NCBI GenBank assembly: GCA_008632985.1
Contig: QPGO01000062.1
Span: 372,001-424,139, forward strand
Direction of reading: 5' to 3'
DNA from: Psammoneis japonica
Taxonomy: Eukaryota
DNA length: 52,139 bases
Shown: positions 1 through 24,970 of the stretch, piece by piece
Layout: each line of letters starts with the position of its first letter
Position numbering within the stretch: position 1 is the first letter of the stretch
The notes under the pieces: model-generated
Databases searched by the model: none
What the model was told of the DNA's origin: nothing
Seen by the model: the letters and a program-made list of their open reading frames with translations, nothing else
Program-made: the position numbers and the translations under genes

Positions 1-149
1 AGGGCACAATGTGCAGCTAAAGTGATTTGAGTTGCAAGCTCACACAGTGACCTGGGGGCCCACAGTGTCTCTCAACAAAAAAAGGAGGCAGGCACAGCCT
101 TGCTCCTTTTCACATTTTTTTTCAAGAAACCAAGTTTGCTTGAAAGAGT

Positions 150-800
150 TGTGGCATGTGGCTGTGCTGCTGGGGGTGTTGAGGTTGTTTTGTGAAGGCA
201 TTGTCACACCAGGGCTGCTCAAGGCAGCAGCATTTGAGCTTGGAGATGACCTGTCAGCAAAACACTTGGGGGGGGNNNGGGGGGGGGGGGGTGGAAGAAA
301 ACTTCCAGCTGACTCTGCCACCACACACACAGCACAGGCTTGCAAAAGCATCAACAACAAGGAGCACCATGATGATGAGCTCATGCCATCAGCGCAAAAG
401 AGCCTCCTGGAGGGCTGCTGCATTTTTGTTTTGGGCACTTTTCTTGAGTGGCTGTTTGGGTGTCATCATGCTGGCTGCTGTTGGCTCATGCACATCTTGT
501 TTCAGCAGCAGAAAAGAATCATCTGCCATGACACCCTTCAACATGACACAAGCTCACGGGCATGCTGGAATGCTGGGACCTGTCTTTTTTGATGATCTGT
601 GACATCTGGCAGTTCTCTGGATTGTGAAGCATCCATGATGCTTGCTGCCACACATGATTTGTGCCACACTGCAAAAAACAAAAACAGAAGACCTGTGCAA
701 AACAAATTTCCCCATCAACTTTGGAGCCTCCCTGGCAATGTTTGCATGCTGGCCAAGGGAGAAATTCAAGGAAGCATGCTGCACTCTTGAAATGAAGCAC
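150..800. repeat. Old degenerate dispersed repeat (copy 1; copy 2 at about 27030-27720)
   Basis: Collinear shared blocks, e.g. gtggctgtgctg..ggggtgttgaggttgttttgtg, ccagctga.tctgcca, ccatgacacccttcaac, atttgtgccaca.tgcaaaaaa, tggccaagg(g)gagaaatt. Almost no TpA or CpG. Family not recognisable. Confidence 0.7.
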
Positions 801-801
801 A

Positions 802-1077
802 TGACAGAAATTGAAGGCAAATGGCAAGAATTCAAACAACAACTCCTTGCTGCTGTCTAAATGGCAGATGAGTCTCCGCTCAGAGACCGTTGCAGGAGCC
901 GAAAGACGTGCAAGTCGGCACAATCGGGCTGCTGTTGTCATTCTTGTGAGCCGTGTGGCTCGAAAGCAAACTGCATCGCATGCGAACGCGCAGAACTAAA
1001 GCACACAAAACTGTGCGCGGCAAACTAAACAGCACGCGACATTTCGCGCGCACCTGAATCCTGTTCAAATCCTGTCA
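802..1077 (-). repeat. 276-bp LTR of Copia family A
   Basis: Inverted copy of 9097-9372, with TGACAG...CTGTCA termini and an adjacent polypurine tract (GGGGAG on the minus strand). Confidence 0.92.
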
Positions 1078-3212
1078 CTCCCCAGTTTGCTTGAGGAGTC
1101 ACAGAAACAGATTCGACTTCGGATGGAATGAAGTTCCAGAACATGAGGGGGCGGAGAAGGTCCCAGACTTGGGAGCAACCCCAATGCTTGCTGAGAATGT
1201 CAGCAGGGTTGCGGGAGCCTTCGATGAAGTGGAGCTCAAGGCAACCAGAGGCAATTGCCTCGCGCACATGGTGGAATGACAGTGTGGTGTGTCGCTTGTG
1301 TGACTTGGAGTGCGGGATGGTGGCACTGTCTACAACCGACTTGTTGTCACCGAACATGTGACTGATGTCACAGATCGGGACGCCGAGGCAGCGCAGGGTG
1401 ATGCGCAGGTCAACAATCTGCTCGACACAAGTCCTTGCGGCAACAAATTCAGAGCCGCAGGTTGCAGTCTCCATGGTGGCTTGCTTCTTAGAGAACCAAT
1501 CAGCCAGGAATTTGTTGAGGAAGTGGAGCATTCCCATGACAGAGCGTCCGGTGAGCATGCAATGGCACAAGTTTGCATCGACGCAGTGGGTGGCAGCAAC
1601 GAACTTGCCAAGGGGTGGTGGAGCGTCCTTCGGGATCATCTCTTCTGCCTTGCCGCACACGGAATGCATCCATTCACAGGCCGGAGCAGGGAGATCCGAA
1701 CAGTCGGGCTCTTCCGTGCGAACGCAGAGAGCGCCGTGTCGCATCTTGGAGAGGTGCCAACAGATGCGTTTGGCACGATCCAAGTGGCCTTGACGGGGCG
1801 CAGCTCGCCGTTCCTGCGCATCCAAATGTCGGGTTCGGCGCGGCAGGGGAAGAAACCTTCAGCTCGCAGGCAGTCGGTGAAGCGCTCATGCCAGCGGAGG
1901 CCGGAGCTGTGCAGTCCATGCAGGGCCTTGTGGATGACAAGAATGTGGCCTTCGAGTTTGCCAAATTCGGGTCCAGCCATGATGCACAGCTTCTCCTTGG
2001 TGGTGGCTTCAAGGTGGGCATTGCCAATGTCGGTGGCCCATGTCTCCAACTCGTTGAGTTCGGCCAGGAAAATCATCAGCCGAAGGCCACGGAGGGAGAC
2101 TGCTCCGGAGCAGACACTGTCGATGGGCACATCCGTGAGGTGCCCATCGGCTGCGAGTCGTGCCTTGTGGCGGCCGTCGTGTTTCACGTCACACACCAGG
2201 TGCACTCGGATCTTCTTGTGTCCCGCAGGAGGAGTGGAAGACTCGGAGGGCCCGCAGTCATGAAAGACTTCGTATTCATCAAGTTGGTCCATCTCGAGAT
2301 TAGTTGCGTCTCCCCATTTGCTGTTGCCGTTGCATTCGTCTAGTGACATGGCGTGTTTGCAGTTCCGGGGAACTTCGCATCCGCACTTGTGGCGAGGTGC
2401 AGTGCGGAAGGAGCAAAGCTTGGCTTGGTTGGCCATGCGGAGCAGCTTCTTCTGGCACCTCGCGATGGTGCGGAACCGCTTCCAGCCATCAGTGTCGAGA
2501 AGTCCGTTCTCTCGTGCACAGATGGCGCAGGTGACAGGGTCGTCCTTGGCGATGATGGCAAGAGGCTTGGACGTGATCTCCCCACTTTCCCATTCGAGCA
2601 TGCTGTTGTAGCTTGAGCCTTTCCAGGTTGGGTCATGAGGCTTCAGAGGTCCTTCGTGTGGCACAATGCATTGAAATTTCCAAACAGTGGTGTCCTCGTC
2701 TTCTTGCTCAATGTGATTCATGATGTCATTGCAGGCCAGGACTTCCTCGCATTCGTCGTTGTTGACAGAGCAGACGAACTTGGTGAGCTCAGGGTTGCCG
2801 TTCACTTTCCATTCGTGGTCTTTGACGGCCTTGACGATGCAAGCTCTGTGGCGTTGTCCATCCTCTTGTGGCTGCATGAGGAAGGTGCGTCCGATGATGT
2901 CTTGTGGATCGAAAACTGGCATCTTGGGTGTCCTGATCTCCCCATCGGGTGAATCGACGGGGTTGTCGTCATGGCGAGATTTGATGATGGGTTCAGGTGG
3001 CTCCCCATCAGGAGGATCAAGACGCAGGTTTCGAACGGCAGGATCGGTGGCAGCGGATCGTACGTTGGACCGGCAGAGGATCTTCTGAGTGTCGTCAGAG
3101 AGAATCTTGAAGGTCATCTGGTGGCCGACGTGCTCAGCAATGCCAACAAAGCGTCCACGCAACTCACGGGATTCGGATGGCCAATCGGAGTCATCGAGGT
3201 GGAAGCACACGG

Positions 3213-3607
3213 GACGCGTTCCAGACGCAGGTGGGAATCCGTGTGACATTGGGCCCGCAGAATTCTGCGTGCGAGCTCCGCAGTAAAATTGTGCGGCAAC
3301 AAAAATGTCAACAGTCGCCAACAGAAAATGAGGCAATTTTGCGAACACACAAACTCGCCCATGATTGAAGTGCATCATTTTTTACTTGGCCAGTTGCATT
3401 CTTCAGACATTGAAGAATGTAACTGTCCCATCATTGTTCCCACAAATTCGTCACATGAAACGTCTGGGGCTTCGCAAAACAGCGAGTCTGGACAATTTTT
3501 TTTAAATGTCACACGTGGAAATGTGCGTGCGAAACACACGACGGATGACAAAAATTTTTGTGTCACACGTCAGTGCTGCGAGCTCCCACCCAGGGCTGGA
3601 ACGTGTC
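3213..3607 (+). mobile_element. 395-bp MITE copy 1 (TpA-hypermutated), inserted in the Copia integrase region
   Basis: TIRs GACGCGTTCCAG...CTGGAACGTGTC. 4-bp TSD ACGG (3209-3212 / 3608-3611). The empty site is visible in the paralogous Copia at about 6541-6560. Confidence 0.95.
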
Positions 3608-3663
3608 ACGGGTTCCCACCAGTGAAAGCAAAGCAATGGGCTGATGTCCGGGGTGGAGCCAAT

Positions 3664-6600
3664 GTGATCCCTTTGCCCCGCAGTTATAAGAACATGTTGT
3701 CAGCTCCAATTGGTCTGCACATTGTCAAAGCACACGAAGGTCTTGACATTGCCAATGACTCCTCGTTGTTCACGCATGACGAGTTCCTTGCCTGCCGCCT
3801 CAGCCCCGACTGCATGTCTTCTGTGTCCGTCAGCAGCTCGCCCCTCGCACCTCCGCATGTCACCAACGCGACCAAGGCACGCGACCCGGCACGAGACTTC
3901 AAACAAGGCATCAAGTGTGACCCCACCGCTTTCACGGCTCTCAAATCCGACAAGCAGTGGCACACTTGGCACACCTCACTTGTGGCACAAGCCCATGTCC
4001 AAGACGTCAAGTGTGTTCTAGACTCATCGTACAAACCGACCAGCCCCGAAGACAAACTGCTCTTTGCTGAACAGCAAAAGCACATGTTCGCCGTCTTCGA
4101 ACGCATCCTTCTCACCAACAAGGGCAAGGCTCTCATTCGCGAAAATGTGGGGTCTTCTGACGCCCAGACCGTCTGCCGCGCCTTGTCTGAGCATGCGCTC
4201 GCCTCCACCCATGCATCTGTCAAGTCCTCCACCTTGCTCACGTGCCTCACCACCGCATGTCTTGGTGATGGCACTTGGAAAGGCCCGACCCACGGGTTCA
4301 TCCTTCATTGGCAAGATCAGTTGCGCAAGTGCGAGGCACTCATCCCGGCCAGTGACCACTTCTCTGAAAGACAGAAGCGCGTCATGCTCGAGAATGCTGC
4401 ACATCCTGTCAAGGAACTCCGTGCTGTCAAGAACCAAGCTGATCAGCATCACACGCAGAGTGGCAAGAGCCTCACATGCGATCAACATTGTGGCTTGCTC
4501 CTCTCCACGGCGGCTCAATGCGACAGTGCGTTTCAACCCAAGACGACACCTCGAGCTCCCTGATGCGCCACACACGCACACGACGTCCACTCCGAGGAAC
4601 CGTCCGATGATGTGTTCTGCGACATTGACAGTGACATTGACGTCCTTCAGGCCAATGCTGCCTGCACCCATGGTCCCAGCCTCACCGGTGACCAATGGAA
4701 ATGTCTGCCTCCCGACCACCAACGGATTTGGGATTCGTTGCCCCATTCCTCCAAGGCAATCATCCTTGAGCATTCTCGTCTGCCTCCCCGCAACCCGCGA
4801 GCCAGCAACTGCCATGAGTCCATTGCGGCCAACCTTCACGACCAACGCCTTGGGAGTGACGGTGATGTCAACTTGTCCAACACGACTCCTGCTGACTCTG
4901 GTGACCCCGCTCCAAATGTGGATGCCACTTTGGACAATCCCATCCTGGCGCACCTCACCAAGTGCAAGCCACTGCCACCCGGTGATCTGCAACGCCTGTT
5001 GTCTCCTGACCAAGCCCCCAATGCCAGTTGACCGGGGCCATCCGCCGCTCCCTCTGCCTCGCCAGCTCCCACCGATGACACAGAACTTAACGGCCGCACT
5101 TGCCGCCGCGTCAATGACCACAATGTCATTTGCTCTGCCTCTGCTCATCGCTCCACACGCACTGGTGCTCCAGTCGATCGTGGGGCCAATGGCGGCATTG
5201 CTGGCGACGACGTTCGCGTCATTGCATGCACCTCTCGCCAAGTCGACGTTCAGGGCATTGACGACCATCAATTGGTGGACATCCCTGTTGTCACCGCTGG
5301 TGCCGTCATTGAGACACAGTGTGGTCCCGTCATCGCCATCCTCCATCAGCACGCATGCACGGGAAAGGGCAAGACCATTCATTCCTGCGGCCAGCTCGAA
5401 TGGTGCAAACAGGATGTCAACGATCGCTCTGTCAAGGTGCCCAACGGCTTGCAATGCATTGCCACCCCTGATGGCCATGTCATCCCAATTGACGTCAAGG
5501 GCGGCCTGCCTTGTGTTGTCATGCGACCTTGCGCTGACGCCAAATGGGACACCCTGCCCCATGTCATCCTTGCCGGTGATGACACATGGGATCCTTCCAC
5601 CTCGATCACTCTGTCACTGACGACGAACAGTGGCACGACGCGATCTCTGACCTGCAGGACGATCCCACTGCCAACCCATTTGACGAATGCGGCAACTGCC
5701 ATCATCGTGTCATTGTCAACAAGACCATCATGTCCGCTTCCTTGTCTGCCGATCACGCGTCCGCCCTCGATGATCACCTCATTCCGAACGACGACGTGTT
5801 CCACGAGTGTCATCTGCACACGATTGACCCCAAGGACGATGACGTTCCGCCCCCGGAGTGCACTGTGCAGCCCAAGGACCCCCCCTTCGAGTCTCTTTGG
5901 CCTTGCTTTGGCTTCCTGCCTGCCGAAGCGGTCAATCGCACTTTTGACTGCACCACGCAGCACGCCCGCATGCCCGCCGGTGCACACCTCAGGAAGGCCT
6001 GCAAATCGCCCAACCTCGCCCTCAATGTGCACCGCCGCAACGAGCCTGTCGCCACTGACACCGTTTGTGCCGACACCCCGGCCATCGACTCTGGTTGCAC
6101 CAGCGCCCAACTGTTTGTTGGCACCGAGTCTGCCGTCACTGACGTCCACGGCACCAAAACGGACAAAGAGTTTGTCAACACACTCGAGGATCAGATCCAT
6201 GAGCGTGGTGCCCCATCCAAACTCATTGGCGACCGTGCTCAAGTTGAGATCAGCAACAAGGTGCTCGGGATCCTACGAGCCCTCTTCATCTCCAGCTGGC
6301 AAAGTGAGCCTCACCAGCAACACCAAAACTTTGCCGAGCGTCAATGCCAGACCGTGAAGCGCATGGCGAACACTGTCATGGATCGTTTCGGTTCACCTGC
6401 CCACACATGGCTGCTGGCACTCATGTGCGTGTGCTTCATGCTCAACCACGCAGCATCCCCACGTCTCCACTGGTGCATGCCCCTCAAGACTCTCACTGGC
6501 TCCACCCCAGACATCAGCCCATTGCTTTGCTTTCACTGGTGGGAACCCGTGTGCTTCCACCTCGATGACTCCGATTGGCCGTCCGAGTCCCGTGAGTTGC

Positions 6601-9372
6601 GTGGACGCTTTGTTGGCATTGCTGAGCACGTCGGCCACCAGATGACCTTCAAGATTCTCTCTGACAACACTCAGAAGATCCTCTGCCGGTCCAACGTATG
6701 ATCCGCTGCCACCGATGCTGCCGTTCGAAACCTGTGTCTTGATCCTCCTGATGGGGAGCCACCTGAACCCATCATCAAATCTCGCCATGACGACAACCCC
6801 GTCGATTCACCTGATGGGGAGATCAGGACACCCAAGATGCCAGTTTTCGATCCGCAAGACATCATCGGACGCACCTTCCTCATGCAGCCACAAGAGGATG
6901 GACAACGCCACAGAGCTCGCATCGTCAAGGCCGTCGAAGACCACGAATGGGAAGTGAACGGCAATCCCGAGCTCACTAAGTTCGTCTGCTCTGTCAACAA
7001 CGACGAATGCGAGGAAGTCCTTGCCTGCAACGACATCATGAATCACATTGAGCAAGAAGACGAAGACACCACTGTTTGGAAATTTCGACGCATTGTGTCA
7101 CACGAAGGACCTCTGAAGCCTCATGACCCAACCTGGAAAGGCTCAAGCTACAACAGCATGCTTGAATGGGAAAGTGGGGAGATCACGTCCGAGCCTCTTG
7201 CCATCATCGCCAAGGACGACCCCGTCACCTGCGCCATCTATGCACGAGAGAACGGACTTCTCGACACTGATGGCTGGAAGCGGTTCCGCACCATTGCGAG
7301 GCGCCAGAAGAAGCCATTCCGCGTGGCCAACCAAGCCAAGCTTTGCTCCTTCCGCACTGCACCTCGCCACAAGTGCGGACACGAAGTTCCCCGGAACTGC
7401 AAACACGCCATGTCACTAGACGAGTGCAACGGCAACCGCAAATGGGGAGACGCAACTAATCTCGAGATGGACCAACTCGAGGAATACGAAGTCTTCCATG
7501 ACTGCGGGCCCTTCGAGTCTTCCACTCCTCCTGCGGGACACAAGAAGATCCGAGTGCACCCAGTGTGCGACGTGAAACACGACGGTTGCCACAAGGCACG
7601 ACTCGTAGCCGATGGGCACCTCACGGACGCACCTGTCGATGGTGTCTACTCCGGAGCAGTCTCCCTCCGTGGCCTTCGGCTGATGATTTTCCTGGCCGAA
7701 CTCAACGAGTTGGAGACATGGGCCACCAACATTGGCAATGCCTGCCTTGAAGCCACCACCAAGGAGAAGCTCTACATTGCAGCCGGACCCGAATTTGGCA
7801 AACTCGAAGGCCACATCCTTGTCATCCACAAGGCCCTGTGTGGACTGCACAGCTCCGGTCTCCGCTGGCACGAGCGCTTCGCCGACTGCCTGCGAGCTGA
7901 AGGCTTCTTCCCCTGCCGCGCCAAACCTGACATTTGGATGCGCAGGAACGGCAGCCACTGTGAGTGCGTTGCCGTTTGTGTGGATGACCTCGCCATTGCT
8001 GTGAAGGACCCTCAATCTTTCGTCGATGCTCTCACGGAAAAGTGCAAGTTCAAGCTCAAGGGTGCGGGACCGATTGAGTTCCATCTGGGCTGCGACTTTT
8101 CCCGGGATCCCAATGGCACCTTGTGCCTGTCTCTGCGCAAGTACATGGAGCGCATGGTCGACAGCTGCACCCGACTGTTTGGGGAGAAACCTGCCACCAA
8201 TGCCCTGTCACCTCTGGAGAAGGGTGACCACCCCAAACTGGACACTTCCGAACTGCTGGGGCCCGATGGCATTCACAAGTTCCAGTCTCTTGTTGGTTCA
8301 CTCCAATGGGCAGTGTCCCTTGGTCGAATTGACATTGCCACGGCCGTCATGTCACTCTCTGGCTTCTGAGCTGCACCCCGTCAAGGCCACTTGGATCGTG
8401 CCAAACGCGTCTGTGGGCACCTCTCCAAGATGCGACACGGCGCTCTCCGCGTTCGCACGGAAGAGCCCAACTGTTCAGATCTCCCTGCTCCGGCCCATGA
8501 ATGGATGCATTCCATGTACGGCGAAGCAGAAGAGATGATCCCGAAGGATGCTCCACCGCCCCTTGGCAAGTTCGTCACCACCACCCACTGCGTTGATGCA
8601 AACTTGCACCATTGCATGCTCACCGGACGCTCTGTCATGGGAATGCTCCACTTCCTCAACAAATTCCCGGCTGATTGGTTCTCTAAGAAGCAAGCCACCA
8701 TGGAGACTGTGACCTGCGGGTCTGAATTTGTTGCCGCAAGGACTTGTGTCGAGCAGATTGTCGACCTGCGCATCACCCTGCGCTGCCTTGGCGTCCCGAT
8801 CCGCAACATCAGTTGCATGTTCGGTGACAACAAGTTGGTTGTAGACAGTGCCACCATCCCGCACTCCAAGTTACACAAGCGACACACCGCACTGTCGTTC
8901 CACCGTGTGCGTGAGGCAATTGCCTCTGGTTGCCTTGAGCTCCACTTCATCGAAGGCTCCCGCAACCCTGCTGACATTCTCAGCAAGCATTGGGGTTGCT
9001 CCCAAGTCTGGGACCTTTTCCGCCCCCTCATGTTCTGGAACTTCATTCCATCTGAAGTCGAATCTGTTTCTGTGGCTCCTCAAGCAAACTGGGGAGTGAC
9101 AGGATTTGAACAGGATTCAGGTGCGCGCGAAATGTCGCGCGCTGTTTAGTTTGCTGCGCACAGTTTTGTGTGCTTTAGTTCCGCGCGTTCGCGCGCGATG
9201 CAGTTTGCTTTCGAGCCACAAGGCTCACAAGAATGACAACAGCAGCCCGATTGTGCCGACTTGCACATCTTTCGGCTCCTGCAATGGTCTCTGAGCGGAG
9301 ACTCATCTGCCATTTAGACAGCAGTGAGGAGTCATTGTTTGAATTCTTGCCATTTGCCTTCAATTTCTGTCA
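3664..9372 (+). mobile_element. Ty1/copia LTR retrotransposon family A, lacking 5' LTR and gag start; gag-PR-IN-RT-RH pseudogene
   Basis: Domain order is gag (about 3690-5030), protease (VDRGANGG, about 5173), integrase (VATDTV, SEPHQQHQNFAE), RT ([Y>C]VDD at 7977-7988), RNase H (VDAN, GSEFVA, NPADILSK), PPT GGGGAG 9091-9096, LTR. In-frame TGA stops at 4561, 6699 and 8367, plus frameshifts. Confidence 0.95.
9097..9372 (+). repeat. 276-bp 3' LTR of Copia family A
   Basis: TGACAG...CTGTCA directly after the PPT. Matches 802-1077 inverted. Confidence 0.93.
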
Positions 9373-9499
9373 CAAGGAGGAGCTCTTGAAGTGCCTGAGA
9401 GGGAGTGCTGCACAGAGCTGCAAGGTCTGGACACTGACTTTGGCTTTCTTGTGCTGCCCCCCCCCCCCCCCCAAGGAGGGTGTTGCAAAAGGGCAGCAC

Positions 9500-9670
9500 A
9501 GCATTGTCCCTCCTTGCAAGGCTGACCAAGCAAAAGGGGAGGGCCTCAAGTCACCAAAGGATTTTGACCACAGAGTGGGCTGAGCCAGATGAAGGCATGA
9601 CAATCACTTCTGACAAGAAGGCAAATGTTTCTGCTGACATTTTGTGCAGTGCTGCAAGGTGTGTGCACGC
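9500..9670. repeat. Degenerate dispersed repeat (second copy at about 35595-35770)
   Basis: Shared string ttgcaag.ctgaccaagc.aaaggg..agggcctcaagt...caaaggattttgaccacagag..tgggctgag.cagatgaagg and cattttgtgcag..ctgcaaggtgtg. Confidence 0.75.
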
Positions 9671-10432
9671 CACTTCAGAGGCCTGCATCCATGAATTGTC
9701 TCATGGTCTGACCAGTGCACATTGCTGTAGACAGCATTTGTGAGTGCCCACACATGCATTCATTTGTGATGAATCATGGCCATTTGACAGCCCACAAATC
9801 TCACCGATTTGCCACAAATGGTCTTGATTGAAAACAAACAAATGTCCACACCAACCAACAAATGTCCAAGGACTTTTACAAACAGTCATCAATCCCAATG
9901 AGTGAGGTGCAACCCAATCAGTTTATGACCCTGAACCAGTTGCTTTGCCGGATTTCACTTTTCTTGTCGCTGCCAACCAGGTGATGACCAAATGCAGTGT
10001 TGTGATTTGTTTTCAATCTTTGCTGTCAAAGTCAATTGGTTGGCTGGTGTGTTCAAACAATGTTTGCCATGGTCCCACCCATTTGTTGCATGTCTCTGCT
10101 GCAATCAATTGTCAACAAGTGTGATCGCAGCTCATGGCTGCCGAGTTGCTCTCGACCAAACCACCGCCGACTCCAGTTTGTAGATTTTGGCACAGTTGAC
10201 CTGGTGGTCATCTTCATCATCCAAGCCATCTTGTGCTTCTTCTGCCACCCGTTGATCTTGCTTGGTTGCAACTGCTCTGCAGAGCTCTTCCCACCATCCG
10301 AGGCACCCGCTTGCAACATCTTGCTTGATCTCCATGACCATGTTGTCAAAGAACTTGTTGGCCTTTGGCGACCACCCTTGGCTCTTCCTTGGTGTCTTGT
10401 GCTTCTGCAATCCCATGCTTCTGTCTGTGTCT

Positions 10433-11749
10433 GATGTGTTTTCATCCTGGGTGAGAAACTTTTGGACACATCACGAGGTTTTCTACGTGTTTCTACGTGA
10501 GACGTACATTCAGCACCAAAAATCTTTGTAAAAATCGCGCTCCATGACAGCAAAAACACATTTTTCCATGTCTCGAACCACAAACCACAATTCGCGCAAA
10601 CCGAAAATGGCACCATGCCGTCGCCATGAACTCGTCCATTCTTGCACCAACGGATGTTGTGACTGAGAAGGCAAGAATGCCGACACAGGTCAACAAGACA
10701 ACACTCAATGCGACAATGTGGTTGAAAATTTGATCTTTGTTTTTTGTTGTGCCTTGTGGACAGCCTTTTGACTCATGACATTTTTGATGCCTCTTTCTCT
10801 CTTCCTCAGCTTGCGAAGTGGGATTCTCATCAACGCGCTGCTCCATCAACTTGACACCAGATGCGGACAACGAAGAATGTTTTTATGACACGTTGCTGTG
10901 ATTCTTACAATGCATCGTCCGCACTTTGAGTCGTTGTGGACGATGCTTTTGGGTCGCGCGACAACATCAGATTTCGCCGCCGACAAGAGAATCGTTGTGT
11001 GTCCAGTTTTGAGGGTGTGTGAGGACAAAGAATCTCAGATGCAAGTGTGACAGTTTCATTGTTGTAAAGTGGAACAACACCATCAGTGATGTCCAAGTGT
11101 TGCAGCCATTTTATTTTATTCTAAGATGGAACCAGTCATTTTGAGCGGTGAAATTTTGTCAACATTTCATCTTTAACTCTGCTTGGGCACATCAGATCAC
11201 ATGGTGACTGGACACACATTTAACTTTGATGCTGCCATTTCAATCCCATTGTTTCATTCACTCAAGTGTCCCACACAGGTCGACAAATCAGTTGATCTTT
11301 GAAATGGCCGATCGCGCAAAAAAATCACGTGCGAAGTCAGTTCCCCCGATTTTTCTCATGCAAACAATGGAGTTAGAACGCCGTTCTTTTTTGGTGTGAG
11401 CTCTTCACACAATGAACAATGCGCACATTCTTTCAAAGCAGTCAGATTCGGTGAAAGAAACAGCAGAACAGTCTCTCAAATGCACCAGAATGACAACAAC
11501 GAGCAGCCAGCTGTCAGTTTCACTCGAAAAAATGCCGCTTTCGAGACAGCGCTTTTCTTGCACGCGCCCTTCAACCAATGAGAACAATGGCTGGCTTTTC
11601 AAAATAAACATGTCTGTGGAAAGAAGAAACGAAAAATCGGGGGAAAGTCCAGTCAGATTTGCTCGCACAAAAAGCACGGCGACGGAAAAGGGACAGACGA
11701 AATGTCTCACCTCCGTGTGCGCGTTTCTCACCTGGGATGAAAACACATC
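10433..11749 (+). mobile_element. ~1.3-kb non-autonomous TIR DNA transposon, copy 1
   Basis: 27-bp TIR GATGTGTTTTCATCC[TG/CA]GGTGAGAAAC at both ends. Flanks GTCT/ATCT fit a 4-bp TSD with one TA->TG change. No recognisable transposase. Confidence 0.88.
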
Positions 11750-12240
11750 ATCTTTTGGCTTTGCCACCGTGAAATGCTTGAGTGTCCTGACTGGCTTTCT
11801 CTTGTTGCTGGATGCACCCACATTGTTTTGGATGTCAACGAGCACTTTTGCAGCCTTGGTCAGAGCCATGACTTGAGCTGCAGTCTTTGGCTCATCTCGG
11901 ATCTTCTTGACCATGGCATCCCGTTTTGCAATGGACTCTGCCCTTGTGTCCTTGAACTTGTGCTTCAGTTCTTGTGCTGACAAACCTTCCTCCTCCAGTG
12001 GCTCTTGTGGATCTTTCTGGAGCAGCACAAACATGCTCTGGCCCTGGTCTTCCTTCTCCTTGGCTGTCGCGAGGTCTGGCATGATGGTCTCACACAAGTC
12101 CTTGCTTTGCTCTTGGTCCATTGGGCCTCCATCATCAACCAACTCCACGTCGCAATCTGACATCAGATTCCCCTGTCCTTGTTTTGGCTCTTGCACTCGG
12201 CACACCACACATTGCTGTTGTTCTTGAGGAGCATGTGGGC

Positions 12241-12635
12241 GACGCGTTCCAGCCCTAGGTGGGAGCTCGTAGCACTGACGTGTGACAACAATAATTTTTA
12301 TCATCCGTCGTATGTTTCGTACGTAGATTTCTACGTGTGATATTTAAAAAAATTGTCCAGACTCGCTGTTTTGCGAAGCCCAAGACGTTTTATATAACAA
12401 ATTTATAGAAACTATAATGCGCCAGTTACATTCTTCAATGTCTGAAGAATGTAACTGGCTAAGTAAAAAATGATGTACTCCAATCATGTGCGAGTTTGTG
12501 CGTTCGCAAAATTGCCTCATTTTCTGTTGGCGATCATTGACATTTTAATTACCGTATAATTTTACTACGGAGCTCGCACGTAGAAGTCTACGGGCCCAAT
12601 GTCACACGGATTCCCACCTGCGTCTGGAACGCGTC
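12241..12635 (-). mobile_element. 395-bp MITE copy 2 (TpA largely intact, young)
   Basis: TIR GACGCGTTCCAG at both ends. TSD GGGC (12237-12240 / 12636-12639). Inverted relative to copies 1 and 3. Confidence 0.95.
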
Positions 12636-13361
12636 GGGCAAACACCTTGGCGCACGCTGTGCCCATCCTCTTTTTCTTGGAGGTGCACTCTTTCCAGTGT
12701 GTGTCTCCAACAATCGGGTGCAGCATGCAGTCACAGAACACTGTCTGCAAAGCTGGGTTTCCCGAGTGATCTTGGAATCTTTCCACCAATGGCAAGATGC
12801 AATTGTTGTCATTGCAGCATGCACAAAGAGCTTCATTTGCGGCAGGGAAAGCAAGTGAGATGACACTTTTGGCAATCACAACAGCCACTCCTGTTTCACT
12901 CTCCATCATCACTCACTGTTGAACTTGTCCCTGCTGCGCCTGGCGTGCATTTAACCTCTTGATTGCCAGCCACTCCTGTTGCATCTTTTTTTGTTTTGTC
13001 GCAAGCCACTGGCAGCGCAGGCATGTTTTTTGCTCTGGCTCGGGCAAATCCTTTGAGCATCCTGTCCATCATCTTGGGGCCGCAATTCTGTTCATGATCT
13101 CTGCAGAGCATGCCCGTTTCCTCCATTTCCTTGTCATTGAATGTGAGTGTGACACTTGGGAACAATGTTTCCTTTGCATGTTCTCTTGCCTTCACCACAT
13201 CTTCCATCACCTTGGCCTGATCCGCCATCCAATTGGTTGAGCTTGCATGCCACTGCACAATGACCATTGTCGTCCACTTCTGCAGCAGTGTTTGTTTCCT
13301 GTGGGTGCTGAATGAAGCACACTGAAGCAATGTGATGGATGTGGTTGAGTCATGCGGATGC

Positions 13362-14677
13362 GATGTGTTTTCATCCCAGGTGAGAAACGCGCGTGCGGAG
13401 GTGAGACGTTTCGTCTGTCCCTTTTCCGTCGACGTGCTTTTTGTGCGAGCAAATCTGACTGGACTTTCCCCCGATTTTTCGTTTCTTCTTTCCACAGACA
13501 TGTTCATTTTGAAAAGCCAGCCGTCACTCTCATTGGTTGAAGGGTGTGCACAAGAAAAGCGCTGTCTCGAAAGCGGCATTTTTTGGAGTGAAACTGACAG
13601 CCATCTGCTCGTTGTTGTCATTCTGGTGCATTTGAGAGACCATTCTGCTGTTTCTTTCACCAAATCTGACTGCTTTGAAAGAATGTGTGCATTGTTCATT
13701 GCACAAAGAGCTCACACCAAAAAAGAACGGCGTTCTAACTCTGTCATTTGCATGAGAAAAATCGGGGGAACTGACTTCGCACGTGATTTTTTTGCACGAT
13801 CGGCCACTTCAAAGATCGACTGATTTGTCGACCTGTGTGGGACACTTGAGTGAATAAAACAATGGGATTGAAATGGCAGTGTCAAAGTTCAATGTGTGTC
13901 CAGTTGTCATGTGATTTGACATGCCCAAGTGGAGTTAAAGATGAAATGTTGACAAAATTTCACCGCTCAAAATGACCAGTTCTATCTTAGAATAAAATGA
14001 AATGGCTGCAACACTGAGATGTGCCAATGGCATTGTTCTACTTTACAACAATGAAACTGTCACACTTGCATCTGAGATTCTTCATCCTCACACACCCTCA
14101 AAACCGAACACACAACGATTCTCTTGTCGGCGGCGAAATCTGATGTTGTCGCGCGACCCAAAAGCATCATCCACAACGACTCAAAGTGCGGACGACACAT
14201 CACAAGAATCACAGCAACGTGTCATAGAAACATTCTTCGTTGTCAGCATCCGGTGTCAAGTGGATGGAGCAGCGCGTTGATGAGAATCCCACTTCGCAAG
14301 CTGAGGAAGAGAGAAAGAGGCATCAAAAATGTCATGAGTCAAAAGGCCACCCACAAGGCACAACAAAAAACAAAGATCAAATTTTCAACCACATCATCGC
14401 ATTGAGCGTTGTCTTGTTGACCTGTCTCGGCATTCTTGCCTTCTCAGTCACAACATCCGTTGGTGCAAGAATGGACGAGTTCATGGCGACGGCATGGCGC
14501 CATTTTCGGTTTGCGCGAATTGTGGTTTGTGGTTCGAGACATGGAAAAACACATTTTTGCTGTCATGGAGCTCGTTTTTTACTGAGATTTTTGGTGCCAA
14601 ATGCACGTCTCATGTAGAAACACGTAGAAAACCTCGTGATGTGTCCAAAAGTTTCTCACCTGGGATGAAAACACATC
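13362..14677 (-). mobile_element. ~1.3-kb non-autonomous TIR DNA transposon, copy 2 (inverted)
   Basis: Reverse complement of 10433-11749 with the same TIRs. Flanks ATGC/ATGG match at 3 of 4 positions. Confidence 0.88.
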
Positions 14678-14699
14678 ATGGCGCGCATGTGATGGTTGT

Positions 14700-17600
14700 C
14701 TTTTTCCCATCCATGTGTGTTGTTTGCTTGCCTGGACGGAGTCTTTCTCCATCATGTTTCTGTTTGTCTGTTCATCTGCGTTCAAATTTAAACAGATCCT
14801 TTCTCCAATTCAAAAATTTTCATCTTTAATTTCTGAACATGTGCGTGCCATGATGTCCAATTGTCTCTTTGTGGCCAACTCTCTAACAGTTGTTGCCACC
14901 ATGCCAAGCAACTCCCATTCAAAAATCAACCGGGTCTGCACCCAATGATTTGGTTCTCAATCCGAAACCTGTGCACCAACAAATGGTTGTGAACAAGCAC
15001 CCAATTGTTTCATCCTGCTTCTGCCGCCTTCCTTGTCTCCAATCAGACTCTTAGCTTGGCATGCCCATTTGCCACTGTCGCTGCCAATGCCCGCAAAATG
15101 CAGCCCATCCCAGTGTGTCTGCCACAACTCAATTGAGCCAGCTGTCGCAAATCACCGTTTTCATTTTCCAAGAACAGCAAATTGCTTGTCAGTTGTCTGT
15201 TTCTGCATCTGAGAATGACAAAGCACCAAGTTGCAGCACAGACTTTAATGGAGATGATGACCCACCCAGTTTCTCACCTGCGGATGACCCGGAGCCCATG
15301 CCTCCCCCGATGAAGAAGTCAAGAAGGAGGAGCAGGAGGAGGGCTGTGATGACAAAGAGCTTGATGATGATTCCTCTCATTGCGAGATGTTCCCTGGCCA
15401 TCTTGCTGTGTCCGTCTCCTCTCCTCCGGATGAGACATCTGAAGAATCAACCAACAACTTGGATCCCTTGAATGGTGAGGCACACCTGATTCACCAACCT
15501 TTTCACTGGCCAAGGAAGCTTCACTTGAGCTGATCATGCTGTGCAACAATTCCAGTGCAACACGTCAATTTTACAGTCAGTTGCTCACCCTGTTGCAATG
15601 ATTTTGCAAGAAGCGGAAATTCAATTGTTTCCAGTGTTTTGGGCGGGAATTTTTGGTGAAGAAACTCTGCAAGAAGGTTTTCCTGCCCCAGCCCGACACT
15701 CGCATCATTGGTGGACGGGGAGTCACTCACTTCCACATGCGGGACATGTTGAGAGATTTGTTTGACGTGCACAATCTCAGCATGAACAAGTCCCTGCTGT
15801 GGGCATGTTTCCACAAGTTTGTTCCTGTCAATGATTGTGATCTCAGCAAGATCATGGGAGAGGCTTTGTTGCCACGCTTGACAGTGGCAAGGATGTCAGC
15901 GGCCATGGCAGGACAAAGGTTTGCAAGGAGACAAAAAAGCTGAGTGCAAGAAGGCAAAACCAAGGTTTTGTGGGAGGAAGTGAGTTTTTCAGATGAGGAT
16001 TTCGACGTAGAATCATGTTGAAATCCTGCCGGAAAGTCGTGACAAGTCAGCAAGCTCCGCTTCACATGACCAGAGTCATGCAAGAGTGGGCCTGCAAGAC
16101 CAAGTGGCAGACAGAGCAGTGTCAAATTTTGGTGAACAGAAAGAAAATGGAGGGATTTCTGATCCCTGCCCCAAGAGTTTGAAAATCGGGAGAGTTGTGG
16201 TCACAATTTTTTGGGCGGGAGGACATGGAATGCGTGGGTGGTGTGCCAGTTGCAGATTGGGAGAGAACACTTGTGGAATCTCCCAGACAAGGGGGTTGAC
16301 AATGAAGACATGCACAAAGTTGGATGAAAAACGTGTGTTTGCACTTCCGTGAAATTGCAAAAGGGAGGTCACATCTTGACCAAGTGCAGAGACATAAATT
16401 TGTTTCATGTCAGAACATGCAACAGAAGTGATTCATGTGCAGCCATTGCAATGGTCAGAATGTGTCATTCTTCATGAATGTCATTGAATGGACGTGAGAT
16501 CTGGTGGCCGCAATGGCGGACGAAGAAAGGAGAGAGAAAGAAACACGGCAAAAAAGCCAGTTTTGGAACAACTTGACAGAGCAAGGTGATGAACTTAAGC
16601 AGCATCAGGCTGTTTGGATGGCGTGCTTGCATTCTGACATTCAGATCAGAAGAGGCGAGGTTGATTGGAGTGCAACCAAGATCAGTGTGATCAAAAAGCA
16701 TGCTTGTGGCAGCGGAAGAATTTTCCTGGCTTGCCAAAGCCAAAGTTGTTAGACTGTTCAGACAGCACACTCAAGTTCTGATGTGCAGAACAGACAAACG
16801 AGGTGGATCGTGTGTGAATCCAGATCAGCTTAGAGCTGGCTTGCTGAGGGCATCCAGATCCAGAGTGATCAGAGAGGGCATTTGCGGCAGCAGGACATGT
16901 TCCAAGCTTGCCAAAAACAAAGACACCCTCAAGCTGCTCAGATGGCATGCTCACGTTCTGACACTCAGATCAGACAAAACGAGGAGGATTGCACTGCAAT
17001 CCGATCAAGTGGCTTGCGGAGGCTGTCTGGATCCAGCATGATCAAGAGGCGTTTGCGGCGATCGGGAACATTCCGATCTGCCAAAACAAAACACCGAACT
17101 GCATTGTTCGCACTCTGATGGAATGAGTCAGAAGTGGCAAGAGCAACGCAGGCATCATGCACAATCGACTTGGCTTGTGGAATCTCTCCGGATCCGAGTC
17201 GACGGCTGACTCATCGTGGCATTGCAGGCTGATCATTGATGACCAAGCCCATCCGCTGTTCGTTGGTGCCACATGTGCAGCTTGTGGGCGATTGTGCAAG
17301 GCATGCCATTCGGCAGAAGCAATGTTTTCAGTGTTGTCGGCCCACATCGGGTCGACGCAACCGACCCCATCATCACCGGCAGTCCGCCAAATGCAATGAG
17401 GGGAACTGGGGCCGGCGGCCTCTCGTCTCGTCCATCGTCTGTCTGTCTCCCACTGCGTGCTGCTGTCACGCGGTGACTCCACCAAGAGCACGACCGCCCA
17501 CAAGGTGTCCTCTCCTTGTGCTGGGCCTGCCGTCTTGGCTCTGACAAAAATCGCCCTTTTCAATTGATGATTTCTCAACCATCATCCGATGAATGACCGC

Positions 17601-18200
17601 CGGAGTTGCTGCAAACAATTGTGTTGGTGCACGAGAATTGAGGGCAAACGCTCTGGAATCTGGAGTTGGGAATTTTTTGGCCTGAAAAAATCGAACCCAA
17701 AAAGTTCGAACTTTTGTCACCAACTTCCTCTCCAGTGTTTTTGGACATTTTTGATGACTTTGAAATGGGGGAACACTTGAGGGTCGTGCATTGGAGTTTT
17801 TGACACCCGGACCCATTTCAGTGCACGCCTTCATGTGTCTGTAGAATGCACTGAAATGTCAAAGGTCCAAATCAAATCGTGTTTGGCGTCTCAAAAACGT
17901 TCCCCCATTTCGGTTCCTCACCAATCAAAGAAATGAGGCGCAACATTCATTGTTCAACAAATGAACATGTTTCAATGATCACACCCAAAACTTGCACCTC
18001 ATCTTCCGAACAAACCGTCAGTGCTTGCCCCCCATTCTCCCCCCCCCATGGAACAAGCAGACTCTCAGCTTTCCATCGATGCATCACATGTGGGGCTGTT
18101 GTTCGTACAAAATTTCAAGTCATCATTGACATTCAACACAACAGCTGGCAGCTAGAAGTGGCAACAGGAATCATTCGAAAATGTCGCATGAGTCACAATT
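14700..18200. other. TpA-depleted relic with broken plus-strand coding-like segments; probable decayed TE
   Basis: Near-absence of TpA. An acidic stretch and fragmented ORFs lie at about 15200-17120. No motif recognised. Confidence 0.35.
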
Positions 18201-18512: not shown

Positions 18513-18589
18513 GTAAGTGCGTCGTTTGTTGTTTGCCATGGTGCGATTTTTTTAGCTTGGTGTTTGTACGTGCGTGCGAGTGACTCACA

Positions 18590-20344
18590 ATGAGCAACAT
18601 GCTGCGTCGATTTGTTGCAAACGCTGCCAAGCAGGCAAAATCTCGAGCATGGTTCAATTTTGGCACAGTCTCCGAAGAGGCGGTTATTGTTCGGTTGAGA
18701 CCACACCGGCGGAGCCAGATTTTTTGTCAAGTCTCGGCTAGTGCCATTGCTCTCTCCTTGTGCGTCTACGTCCTTGGTTCTTCTGATACATGTAAGACTC
18801 ACGGCAGTAAAATAAAGGAAGAGAAGGACGAGCAACTGCATCAGCTACTCATTGGTGCTGCAATATCCGGCGACGGCGAACGCGTCAACGAGCTTCTTCG
18901 GGTAGGCGCAGGACCAACAAATGAGTTGTTAAAGCTTGTGATTCTTTGTGATTATGTTGACGCCCCCCCCGTCGTAGATGCCCTTTTGAAAGATGACTTT
19001 ATTGATCCAAGTAAAGCACTTTTTTACGCTGTGAAAGCCGGAGATATTGAGGTGGTAAAGGTCCTTCTAAAGAATGGTGCCGATCCTAATACTCGAGGTG
19101 TAGAAAAAATATTTTGGGGTCGGACTCCCATGTTTATCGCGGCGGAAATGGGTAATGTAGAAATGGTCGATGTCCTCTTACAACATGGAGCCAATCCCAG
19201 CGAAGTCGACTGGAAAGGGAGGACACCTCTGCATGGAGCAATACGGCATGACCACTATTCAACAGTAAGCTTTCTATTGTCACAGCTTGAAGTGGATACA
19301 AGCGGTGCCTTACAACATGCGTTGAGCTGTGAAATGATCAATTTTCTGCTTGAAAATGGATGTGATGCGCAGGAGTATGGCAGCTCGGAAGATCTGGAAT
19401 GCAAGATAGGTGCTATTCAAGAGGCCAGAAAGAGGCAAGGAGCATCTTCATTTGTTTTACAATCTCAAGGCTGGCGCCCACTTCTTGATATTATGTATGA
19501 CCATCTCAACAATAAGATATCCAGTGCCCGTCGGCGAATGGAAGTTGTTCGTGATGATCCGGCGAACAAACCACTTCTTGAGATTATCAAAAAAGCGTCA
19601 GAGAAAATGGGTGAATTACGAAAGCTGGAAAACAACTTGTACTCAACCGAGTTGAGATTGTCTCAAACCGGCAGCATTGCAGAACAGCAAGCTTTGCTTG
19701 CAAGCAAAGATAAGCTCTTGAGACACGTTGTGGTAGTCTCGCAAGCTCTGGATATGATTAAGTGGGACGAGCAAAATCGACCGACGTGGATTCGGCCTCG
19801 GAAAAGAAGGATTGCAGAACCAGCCATATTTCTAAGTCACACTGGCCAGGATGAGCGTCCGGCCACGTTTGTTGAGTTTCTCCATGAAGCGCTCGTAAAG
19901 GATCACGGGTTAGAAGCATTCTTGGATACCAAAAGCCTCGAAACTGGAGTCACATGGCAGGAAGAGATTGAATATTGTGCGACTCATTGTCGAGTCTTTG
20001 TTTGCGTACTGTCGGATAAATACTTCTCTCGCTACTGGTCTATGCATGAGCTCGACCTTGCCATGCACTCTGGAGTAGAGATTATACCGATATGGCATGG
20101 GTGCAAACCACCCAAAGTCAACAACAACGTGCGGCAAAGCCTTGCTCGGGTTTTGGAAGAGCGCGAAGTTACAGACTCCGAAACGCTGGACCGTTGGTGT
20201 GAGAATCTTCGGAAGCTTGGGATGATTCAAGGTGTTTTCGACGAGTCAACGTCCAAGCATAGCCAAGTGCAATTCCGAGACAAAGCGGCAGCTGACATTG
20301 TCAAGAAGCTAAAGGAGGTTCGAGCTCGCAGTGACACCGAGTAG
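18590..20344 (+). CDS. Ankyrin-repeat / helical linker / C-terminal TIR-domain protein (584 aa)
   Basis: ANK motifs ALFYAVKAGDIEVVKVLLKNGADPN, GRTPMFIAAEMGNVEMVDVLLQHGANP, GRTPLHGA. TIR motifs IFLSHTGQD, AFLD..SL..G..W..EI, VFVCVLSDKYFSRYWSMHEL, IIPIW. Uninterrupted ORF. Confidence 0.9.
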   Translation: MSNMLRRFVANAAKQAKSRAWFNFGTVSEEAVIVRLRPHRRSQIFCQVSASAIALSLCVYVLGSSDTCKTHGSKIKEEKDEQLHQLLIGAAISGDGERVNELLRVGAGPTNELLKLVILCDYVDAPPVVDALLKDDFIDPSKALFYAVKAGDIEVVKVLLKNGADPNTRGVEKIFWGRTPMFIAAEMGNVEMVDVLLQHGANPSEVDWKGRTPLHGAIRHDHYSTVSFLLSQLEVDTSGALQHALSCEMINFLLENGCDAQEYGSSEDLECKIGAIQEARKRQGASSFVLQSQGWRPLLDIMYDHLNNKISSARRRMEVVRDDPANKPLLEIIKKASEKMGELRKLENNLYSTELRLSQTGSIAEQQALLASKDKLLRHVVVVSQALDMIKWDEQNRPTWIRPRKRRIAEPAIFLSHTGQDERPATFVEFLHEALVKDHGLEAFLDTKSLETGVTWQEEIEYCATHCRVFVCVLSDKYFSRYWSMHELDLAMHSGVEIIPIWHGCKPPKVNNNVRQSLARVLEEREVTDSETLDRWCENLRKLGMIQGVFDESTSKHSQVQFRDKAAADIVKKLKEVRARSDTE

Positions 20345-21312: not shown

Positions 21313-21753
21313 AGAAGCTTGTCTCCCCACTTATCCCAGATGAGCTCCAGCTTCAAGGTGGGACTCACAGTGGGGAACAGCAACATTTTGCATTTTTTGT
21401 TTCTCAGCGCAAAAATTCATGTGCATTTCCACATGACTTTTGACTCATTTTGCACCAGGTTTCAGTGCAGTTGTTGGGCCATGACTTGCTGAACAACTTG
21501 ACACTCTGGCATGTGCTGCAGCTCCTGCGCCCTCCAACATCTGTGGCTGAGTGCAACAACACACACAAATTTTCCACAATTTTGAGTGTGAAGAGGTGCA
21601 ACAGCACTGCAAAGTGGTCATTGTTTTGATGTCAAAGACAGGTGTGTCTGGTGTGTGACAGCCACAGCGCTTGTGAGGAGTGGAGCTCCATGGTGCAGGG
21701 ACAAATGAGGCCTAGAAATCCCTGCACCTGGAGCTTGGGCACCTCTCCACCAA

Positions 21754-21986
21754 GCTGCAGAAGGCAGCAGCAATGGACAAATGGAGCCACTTGTTGTGTG
21801 CAATGCAGCCCCTTCCTCCTTGCACTGTGGTTTCTGGCATGACCCTCTCCTGGGGCAAACTGGCAGCCCCTGGCTGCAGAAGGCAGTGGCAATGGACAAA
21901 TGGAGCCACTTGTTGTGTGCAATGCAGCCCCCTTTCTCCTTGCACCATGGTTTCTGGAATGACCGTCTCCTGGCAAACCAGCAGCT
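21754..21986. repeat. Two-unit tandem repeat with a period of about 119 bp
   Basis: gctgcagaaggcag..gcaatggacaaatggagccacttgttgtgtgcaatgcagcccc starts at 21754 and 21873. Several unit differences are TG versus CA swaps. Confidence 0.85.
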
Positions 21987-24288: not shown

Positions 24289-24652
24289 GAGATTACCGCG
24301 GTTGATTGCAAAGGTCAACTACTGTTGCATGGTGAAACGGAGAACGAGAAAATGAATAAACACAATGCAACAACAATGCTAGGCATGTTATACATAAAAA
24401 CACAATACATGAGCAAAGATCTCGTCTTCTTGTATCCTCACACTGCATCCATACAACATTTCACTGGCCCTGGCATTCGAAGTTCACCGTTGATCGATCA
24501 TGTCATTTAACATCGGGCTAGAGTTCCTACGTTTGCTGCTGACGAGAGAGACATCATCCGACCGCTCAAACGTGCTTCTTGGTAAATTCAAAGCAGACCC
24601 AAAGTCAAGCCTCTCAAGAGGGAGTTACTGACCGGCCTTCTCTTTCTCCAAT

Positions 24653-24657
<5 letters not shown>

Positions 24658-24694
<37 letters not shown>
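24658..24694. repeat. (GA)n microsatellite of about 18 units
   Basis: Perfect GA run. The paralogous site near 37792 has only tagagag. Confidence 0.95.
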
Positions 24695-24696
<2 letters not shown>

Positions 24697-24889
24697 CTGT
24701 GCTCAGCATCCTTTAGAAAGTTCATCTGCAACAGCTGGCTTGTCCTTTTGCAAGACCTTTTTCATGCAGGTCTGAAAGCACATCTGACCAGGCCTGTCAG
24801 GCAGTTGCTGCATGCAGTTTGAAAATGTCTGTCTCTAGAATGGCTGCTGCATTCAGAGGGTGCACTTGCACCTGCTGCCACAATGACAT

Positions 24890-24970
24890 TCAATGCAACT
24901 GAGAACAACAGGGCAGCTTCTTGACATGATGCTTCCTTGCTTTCAAATCTCCTTGCTCTTGTTGTTGCAG
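24890..24970 (-). pseudogene. Hypermutated 3' remnant of the 37981-38430 gene
   Basis: QQQEQGDLKARKHHVKKLPCCSQLH* versus the intact RRQERGDAKTKKRHVKKLPCNSQLY*. Confidence 0.85.

Follow-up and report, generated by a model that had tools for sequence, protein, structure and literature searches.

The window analysed here is a stretch of 52,139 nucleotides from Psammoneis japonica (GenBank assembly GCA_008632985.1, contig QPGO01000062.1, positions 372,001 to 424,139 of the forward strand), and its transposon-derived DNA has very probably undergone hypermutation in place, as DNA, at the dinucleotide 5'-TA-3' (TpA) in a raphid-pennate-like diatom host. The footprint lies on two copies of a truncated Ty1/Copia polyprotein region (Copia A), on a second, unrelated Copia family (Copia B), on a nested element resembling a miniature inverted-repeat transposable element (MITE), and on the DNA around them. 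The changes are specific for TpA, run from TA to TG or CA, fall on both strands, strike a given site once, came after insertion of the element concerned, and are confined to sharply bounded blocks outside the genes.

Loss of conserved tyrosines in Copia A and Copia B

The plus copy of Copia A (3670-9372, + strand; TpA observed/expected ratio (o/e) 0.05-0.13) is a 5'-truncated polyprotein region assigned to Ty1/Copia by its RVT_2-type reverse transcriptase (RT) and by colinearity with a relative of 1933 amino acids (aa), P0010. RVT_2 was matched by the open reading frame (ORF) at 6702-8369 (Pfam, E 2.7e-21), and residues 79-1911 of P0010 are colinear with positions 3670-9038 (tblastn). The copy has one frame shift near 5601 and in-frame stops at 4561, 5029, 6699 and 8367, all four of which are TGA. 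The minus copy (802-3667, - strand) is inverted and retains only the RT-RNase H part (aa 1070-1911 of P0010), interrupted by the MITE-like element. Plus positions 6491-9372 and minus positions 802-3667 are 94.9% identical over 2412 aligned bases (self-comparison); the minus copy has no counterpart of plus 7953-8367, and 395 bp are inserted in it at 3213-3607. Pfam detected no integrase core in Copia A and no match for the ORFs upstream in it, and self-BLAST detected no direct repeats (long terminal repeats) flanking either copy, a result which in truncated copies is uninformative on family. Both arms stop at the equivalent base (802 and 9372), and contigs of other genomic copies extend beyond this end with reverse-complementary loose ends; the pair may be a single truncated insertion that was later duplicated in inverted orientation.

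The first-pass annotation had proposed, from nine pairs of plus and minus peptides that show Cys or His in place of Tyr, that tyrosine codons were systematically converted and the elements thereby inactivated. All nine pairs are found in the two translations, and the catalytic YVDD motif of the RT indeed reads CVDD (7977-7988, + strand; TGT GTG GAT GAC) at a place where 97% of 40 relatives have Tyr in the first column. Instead of converting Cys and His back to Tyr, we compared conserved columns with real relatives. The Copia A protein search gave 1269 relatives, and the figures given here come from the best 120 (~60% identity); many are intact polyproteins of 1800-2000 aa on environmental contigs of 6-8 kb. 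The alignment was built from 40 of the 73 relatives of at least 1800 aa, and a column was taken as conserved when one residue occupied it in at least 70% of them.

At the 50 conserved Tyr columns of the plus copy (3670-9149) there are now 26 Cys, 10 His, 8 Tyr, 5 Phe and 1 Trp, the Cys codons being TGC (21) and TGT (5) and the His codons CAC (7) and CAT (3). The minus copy has 14 Cys, 6 His, 2 Tyr, 2 Phe and 1 Trp at 25 such columns. Tyrosine has thus gone from 42 of 50 columns in the plus copy and from 23 of 25 in the minus copy, whereas each of the other residue classes in the plus copy is retained at 71-100% (e.g., His 32/33, Trp 23/25, Gln 25/26, Cys 6/6, Arg 51/66), with Lys, Asn, Phe, His and Gln at 83-97%. 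Taken together, 728 of 860 conserved residues other than Tyr are retained there, against 8 of 50 Tyr (Fisher p 1.2e-24). Tyrosine was therefore the ancestral state, as the annotation had argued, and the loss of the YVDD tyrosine together with so many conserved columns supports its view of an inactivating process.

Copia B (28487-32432, - strand; gag_pre-integrase, SH3_retrovirus and RVT_2 in this order by Pfam) is hypermutated in the same manner. Set against 34 relatives of its own, it has 16 Cys, 10 His, 3 Phe, 1 Arg and 1 Tyr at 31 Tyr columns, so that 30 of 31 are lost, whereas 478 of 616 other conserved residues are retained (Fisher p 8e-18). Over the Copia A plus copy and Copia B, 62 of the 72 lost Tyr columns have become Cys or His.

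Active relatives carrying the same Cys and His residues, which the annotation had named as evidence that would overturn its claim, were looked for and not found: the relatives that look active have normal Tyr and low Cys contents. Two window ORFs contain 1.08% and 0.38% Tyr with 4.14% and 3.85% Cys; every one of the best 120 of the 1269 Copia A relatives contains 2.9-5.0% Tyr, and the 73 relatives of at least 1800 aa contain 0.5-1.4% Cys. The 65 Copia B relatives listed likewise all have a normal Tyr content.

A nested MITE gives direction, specificity and timing

The insert in the minus Copia A copy (3213-3607, + strand, 395 bp) resembles a MITE: it has terminal inverted repeats and is bounded by the target-site duplication ACGG at 3209-3212 and 3608-3611. 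Two young copies of the same MITE lie elsewhere in the window, one at 12241-12635 (- strand) with its TpA intact inside an otherwise TpA-free block, which served as the reference for the ancestral state, and one at 33515-33909 (+ strand), also with TpA intact, inserted in Copia B with the duplication TCAT. The family has terminal inverted repeats of ~12-15 bp and 4-bp target duplications (ACGG, GCCC and TCAT), and the young copies are 98.7% identical with 27 TpA in common.

Among these 27 ancestral TpA, the nested MITE now has TG at 12, CA at 9, TA at 4 and transversions at 2; 21 of the 23 changes at TpA are thus A>G or T>C. While 21 of 27 TpA were hit, only 14 differences are found at ~341 non-TpA positions (p ~1e-19). 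Comparison with the young copies therefore identifies TA as the ancestral state and shows that the hits are specific for TpA and fall about equally on the two strands. The plus Copia A copy retains the empty MITE site at ~6546-6551, which places the insertion into the minus copy later than the separation of the pair. Since the MITE was mutated after its insertion, it was DNA that was changed, in place, in a DNA transposon as well as in retroelements.

TpA-depleted blocks across the window

The depletion extends well beyond the tyrosine codons. Six sharply bounded blocks, amounting to ~33 of the 52 kb, have TpA o/e of 0.02-0.09 and TpG and CpA o/e of 1.5-1.9, and blocks with host genes (Tic110, ankyrin-TIR, GT92-like) have TpA o/e of 0.46-0.75. 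The annotation had explained the Cys and His residues by TAY codons turning into TGY or CAY; the change itself is confirmed, while what is hit proves to be the TpA dinucleotide instead of the Tyr codon, and the effect reaches far beyond Copia A.

The first block (1-12000; TpA o/e 0.09, TG 1.57, CA 1.50) contains both Copia A copies and their flanks. The second (13001-18000; TpA o/e 0.07) includes low-copy DNA, and such DNA in the blocks is TpA-free to the same degree, for example 15671-16927 (single contig, depth 63). The block at 21501-22500 (TpA o/e 0.02, CpG o/e 0.08) illustrates edges on the scale of tens of bases: a single TpA occurs in 21332-22800, and beyond these limits TpA recurs every few bases. 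Copia B lies in the blocks at 24501-33500 and 34001-36000 (TpA o/e 0.07 and 0.03), and only the young MITE interrupts the depletion within 24501-36000. The last block (39001-43000) has TpA o/e 0.06, CpG o/e 0.17 and TG and CA o/e of 1.9. Pfam searches of 45 ORFs from the depleted blocks other than Copia A left 42 without a match, and the three matches were those of Copia B. The stretches 21501-22500, 26001-28000 and 39001-43000 have CpG o/e of 0.08-0.17, TG/CA o/e of 1.9-2.1 and no recognisable protein domain, and are presumably the oldest inserts.

Stop codons follow the same pattern. TAA and TAG together, counted on both strands, number 5.9 per kb in depleted blocks vs. 35.9 per kb in gene blocks, while TGA numbers 46.7 vs. 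37.4 per kb. Long spurious ORFs occur on both strands, e.g., 4022-5620 (+) and 4024-5613 (-), of ~530 aa each.

A gene region with beta-helix repeats is present in two copies (23046-24969 and 36223-38060) that are 88% identical and lie 13 kb apart. Both have normal TpA, with 39 TpA in common. Because these duplicated gene copies are not depleted and low-copy DNA is, duplication as the trigger is not supported.

Comparison of the Copia A copies and CpG decay

Aligned dinucleotides of the two Copia A copies separate TpA loss from the decay of CpG. TA is kept in both copies at 10 sites, is present in the plus copy with TG or CA in the minus copy at 7, and is in no case present in the minus copy against TG or CA in the plus copy (0 sites). 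TG stands against CA at 19 sites. CG is kept in both at 129 sites and stands against TG or CA at 55; TA against CG occurs at 0 sites, and at none in the MITE tables. When fitted to the CG counts, a simple model of CpG decay gives ~3 TG-versus-CA sites in place of the 19 seen, so most of these are TpA that each copy lost to a hit of its own after separation. Most of the plus/minus differences as a whole are CG against TG or CA, which points to CpG decay as their source.

By a rough estimate, about half of the TpA were hit after the Copia A copies separated, and, assuming that 49 TpA were intact at the duplication, TpA would have been lost 5-8 times faster per site than CpG since then. At the 16 Tyr columns mutated in both copies, 12 have the same outcome and 4 are reciprocal; the agreement expected under independence at the observed Cys:His ratio is 56% (one-sided p 0.10 for 12 of 16). 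These data are compatible with a progenitor that was partly mutated before Copia A was duplicated, as the annotation had suggested.

CpG decay is a real, minor contributor and not the main cause. Arg columns of the plus copy have turned into Cys (5), His (4), Gln (1), Trp (1) and TGA (2), and 18 of 48 conserved Arg columns are lost in Copia B. The attribution of the Cys and His excess to tyrosine thus holds for the greater part, and a minority comes from Arg CGY codons by CpG decay. Copia A has a CpG o/e of 0.85, and the blocks that look oldest have 0.08-0.17.

After duplication the split between the two outcomes in the Copia A pair is 8 vs. 11, and strand asymmetry is not seen. An inverted pair at 10432-11749 and 13362-14678, 92.8% identical and flanking the young MITE, has 26 TG-versus-CA sites split 19:7, both arms favouring the same genomic strand; an asymmetry of replication or transcription is a possible source of this split.

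Proposed mechanism

In the mechanism that we propose, one base of a TpA is altered by transition on either strand, giving TG (A>G) or CA (T>C), and the site, being TpA on neither strand after this single hit, is then immune. Single-hit immunity explains why the outcome is Cys or His and almost never Arg (CG), which was seen at 1 of 106 Tyr columns in the three element copies; a hit on either strand explains why Cys and His can be reciprocal at the same Tyr codon in two copies. Tyrosine has the sole sense-codon family that starts with TA, hence the protein read-out of Tyr>Cys/His, including YVDD>CVDD. As TAA and TAG are destroyed and no stop is created, dead elements retain long open frames. 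An ordinary, slower decay of CpG to TpG or CpA acts in the same blocks and accounts for Arg>Cys, His or stop and for most plus/minus differences.

This process would be the same as that described for the chlorarachniophyte Bigelowiella natans in the accessible text of a preprint (Mettrop et al., bioRxiv 10.64898/2026.01.13.699255), and it presumably serves genome defence. There is about an even chance that the underlying reaction deaminates adenine in DNA, giving hypoxanthine, which would be read as G. It is possible, though we lean against it, that TpA editing is an ancient means of genome defence common to the stramenopiles, alveolates and rhizarians (SAR), at least to diatoms and chlorarachniophytes, and carried out by one conserved enzyme. 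If so, transposons and integrated viruses would be silenced permanently with their reading frames left open, to saturation in diatoms; an index of Tyr>Cys/His in RT genes would map the process over eukaryote genomes; and a comparison of lineages that show the footprint with those that do not would help to single out the enzyme, which might be a naturally occurring adenine deaminase of double-stranded DNA.

Other genomic copies and environmental relatives

Further copies were sought in contigs of a public run from one sample. Seven single-copy stretches of the window, the TpA-poor 15671-16927 among them, match these contigs with 0 differences at a depth of ~55-63. Over Copia A the summed contig depth is ~30,000-139,000, compared with ~55-61 in single-copy bins, which is not a copy number and suggests a very abundant family; a summed depth of ~57,000 at 12007-12673 likewise suggests that the MITE family is very abundant. 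Transitions make up 358 of the 426 variant places counted for X1. Of 454 variant places, 40 were available in detail; among these the window has CA or TG against CG in other copies at 18, CA or TG against TA at 7, and CG against CA at 6. At position 5802 the window has CAC, while TAC accounts for 54,816 of a summed depth of 55,249, so the family at large still has Tyr codons which this copy has lost.

Environmental loci that encode relatives numbered 88 (80 from metagenomes and 8 in mis-binned contigs of metagenome-assembled genomes). TpA is ordinary in 86 of them, with a median o/e of 0.71 over the 80 metagenome loci, and none of the 8 others is TpA-depleted. The two exceptions carry the footprint to different degrees. 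Locus L080 (1-2766) is saturated, with TpA o/e 0.02 and 3 TpA left, and at 39 Tyr positions of P0010 it has His at 16, Cys at 8 and Tyr at 1. Locus L045 (1-2759; TpA o/e 0.31) has Tyr at 16, Cys at 14 and His at 6 of 40 such positions; it is about half mutated, TAC having been hit far more than TAT (11 TAT and 5 TAC remain). Two controls of similar divergence, L003 and L027, have 0 Cys. No locus more than 70% identical to L080 or L045 was found, and a scan of viral contigs gave no relative.

Alternative explanations

The alternative that survives best, an unlikely one in our judgement, places the chemistry on the thymine side: a TpA-preferring enzyme that modifies thymine, for example by oxidation to 5-hydroxymethyl- or 5-formyluracil, would cause T>C on either strand and leave the same footprint. 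Oxidised thymines can mispair with G. An A>G change and a T>C change on the opposite strand look alike in sequence, and the outcomes are symmetric, both in the MITE (12 TG to 9 CA) and in Copia A after the duplication, as given above. Thymine modification in diatoms, however, finds no support here, and the accessible text of the B. natans preprint proposes adenine deamination with an ADAT2-like protein as candidate (10.64898/2026.01.13.699255).

Editing of Copia RNA from A to I before reverse transcription, by an ADAR- or ADAT-like enzyme preferring a 5' U, would have inserted the elements already mutated. It could draw on the U-A preference of RNA adenosine deaminases cited in the Discussion of the same preprint (10.64898/2026.01.13.699255, accessible text) and on the excess of Cys (sense A>G) over His, 42:20, in the window. 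Yet 20 of these 62 events are sense-strand T>C, which editing of genomic RNA cannot give; the nested MITE, a DNA transposon, acquired both outcomes when it was already inserted; TpA is missing to the same degree from low-copy sequence outside Copia in these blocks; and the adjacent Copia A copies differ in outcome at the same sites, after separating. We therefore reject RNA editing before reverse transcription as very improbable, in view of the sense T>C, the mutated MITE and the depleted flanks.

Methylated-CpG decay in Arg CGY codons could produce reciprocal Cys and His, and, judging from the 55 CG-versus-TG/CA sites and the Arg columns described above, it is active in these elements. As the main source it is about as improbable as RNA editing: relatives carry Tyr and not Arg at the affected columns, Arg is retained far better than Tyr (51/66 vs. 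8/50), TG-versus-CA sites greatly exceed the ~3 that it predicts, and the ancestral state in the MITE is TA, not CG.

A similarly small chance attaches to an artefact of sequencing or base calling at modified TpA, the true DNA still being TA. Region-specific, strand-symmetric miscalls at modified bases are known on some platforms. Against this, the seven single-copy stretches agree without a difference with the run contigs (which may come from the same sample), the footprint recurs in two unrelated contigs from metagenomes, L080 and L045, and the in-frame Tyr>Cys/His changes stand beside real decay in the form of stops, a frame shift and a deletion. An intrinsic, selected avoidance of TpA in these transposon families can be dismissed, given the normal Tyr of the 120 and 65 relatives listed, the normal TpA of 86 of 88 environmental loci, the replaced catalytic Tyr of YVDD and the TpA-rich young MITE copies.

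Points to be weighed against in-place TpA hypermutation

Several observations nevertheless weigh against hypermutation of DNA in place as put forward here. The evidence is a footprint, with no mutation watched in progress. The two young MITE copies are unmutated inside TpA-free blocks, and the process would be either episodic or no longer active at them. The run that supplied the contigs is possibly the source of the assembly and is not independent of it, and the variant places seen in detail, being 40 of 454, do not tell what share of copies keeps TpA. The assignment of the host from sequence depends on one gene, Tic110 (described below).

In addition, the Cys:His ratio at lost Tyr depends on the locus, and no single neighbour or strand rule fits it. 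The ratio is 42:20 in the window (p 0.007), 14:6 in L045 and 8:16 in L080. Of the 62 Tyr events in the window, 56 have a pyrimidine on the 3' side of the A that was hit; Cys:His is 24:6 where a purine follows the rival A and 18:14 where a pyrimidine follows each of the two. L045 agrees with this 3'-pyrimidine preference (13 TGC, 1 TGT), while L080 is opposite (Cys 8, His 16; 3:10 when the rival has a 3' G). A general neighbour-base rule, which the window and L045 fit and L080 reverses, is accordingly not claimed.

Furthermore, the GC content at third codon positions (GC3) of Copia A, 0.63-0.67 over 3670-9146 compared with a median of 0.49 and a maximum of 0.59 in 55 environmental relatives, is not explained by TpA loss alone. 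Host genes in the window have GC3 of 0.46-0.57. Arg codons in Copia A and Copia B are almost always CGN.

Host genes in the window

A gene for Tic110, the plastid inner-envelope translocon, lies at 45629-49243 (- strand) in four long ORF segments. Its fragments gave 54 matches, every named one from a diatom and the best from raphid pennates (Nitzschia inconspicua 60%, Phaeodactylum 57%, Cylindrotheca 55%, Seminavis 53% and Pseudo-nitzschia 53%). An intact ORF of 586 aa at 18584-20344 (+) encodes ankyrin repeats followed by TIR; it stands in a block of normal TpA between two hypermutated blocks and is a candidate immune-type host gene. Another ORF of 866 aa at 42557-45157 (+) has a thrombospondin type 3 repeat at its C-terminal end and, at 43359-44558, ~8 tandem units of ~48 aa (DNA period ~144 bp, 67-73% identity); the 5' portion of this ORF falls in a depleted block and the repeats in a normal one.

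Significance and relation to known systems

Long ORFs persist in such DNA as TAA and TAG vanish, and gene finders will therefore call dead transposons and spurious antisense ORFs; low Tyr with high Cys and His offers a cheap flag for hypermutated elements. Diatoms would provide a second lineage for finding the enzyme by comparative genomics, and genetic work is feasible in some pennate species. For the base-editing field, an enzyme from nature that edits A in double-stranded DNA would also be of interest.

Repeat-induced point mutation (RIP) of ascomycete fungi acts by C>T mainly at CpA, creating TpA, lowering GC and making stop codons. The footprint here resembles RIP in being transition hypermutation of mobile or repeated DNA with a dinucleotide preference, in its distinct blocks and in the dead transposons it leaves, but it is a mirror image, since here TpA is lost, GC increases and stop codons cannot form. 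As TpA is depleted, GC is raised and TA is the ancestral state, C>T at CpA does not apply, and RIP was rejected as the process. Diatoms do have RID-like DNMT4 enzymes, described as of unknown function in the accessible text of the source (PMC9998398).

Retroelement editing of the APOBEC3 or ADAR type in animals also leaves a deaminase signature with a neighbour-base preference in fixed genomic copies. The footprints of APOBEC3 (G>A on cDNA) and ADAR are strand-specific and arise on cDNA or RNA before integration, whereas here both strands were hit after integration, and a DNA transposon and flanking DNA were hit too. The decay of methylated CpG operates in the same blocks with the same TpG and CpA products and with Arg>Cys/His, but it begins from CG and not from TA.

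The closest known system is that of B. natans, and at the sequence level the present footprint shares every feature of it. In mutation-accumulation lines of this alga, two integrated viral regions accounted for 231 of the 302 new mutations, and 230 of the 231 were A>G or T>C, all on TpA and giving TpG or CpA; TpA-poor coding sequences were enriched for RT and DDE domains, and an ADAT2-like protein was proposed as the enzyme, as a candidate only (10.64898/2026.01.13.699255, accessible text, as for the comparisons that follow). The two systems are alike in that A>G and T>C make up nearly all changes, which affect only TpA and give TpG or CpA according to strand, and in that the changes are confined to discrete foreign or mobile regions where TpA is depleted and CpA and TpG are gained. 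As far as our searches reach, TpA hypermutation is known so far from this one 2026 preprint on one rhizarian alga, the accessible text of which does not mention diatoms, retrotransposons or Tyr>Cys/His, and no report of TpA>TpG/CpA hypermutation in diatoms was found in the literature.

The differences from B. natans lie in the host, here a diatom (stramenopile) and there a chlorarachniophyte (rhizarian); in the targets, here Copia, a MITE and unidentified repeats and there inserts of giant viruses and virophages; in the evidence, here a footprint and there measured de novo mutation; and in the extent, the depletion being near saturation here (o/e 0.02-0.09) and 0.45 in the nucleocytoplasmic large DNA virus region of B. 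natans. A saturated footprint on diatom retrotransposons and a DNA transposon, together with the two environmental contigs, suggests that the process described in B. natans is not a peculiarity of one species.

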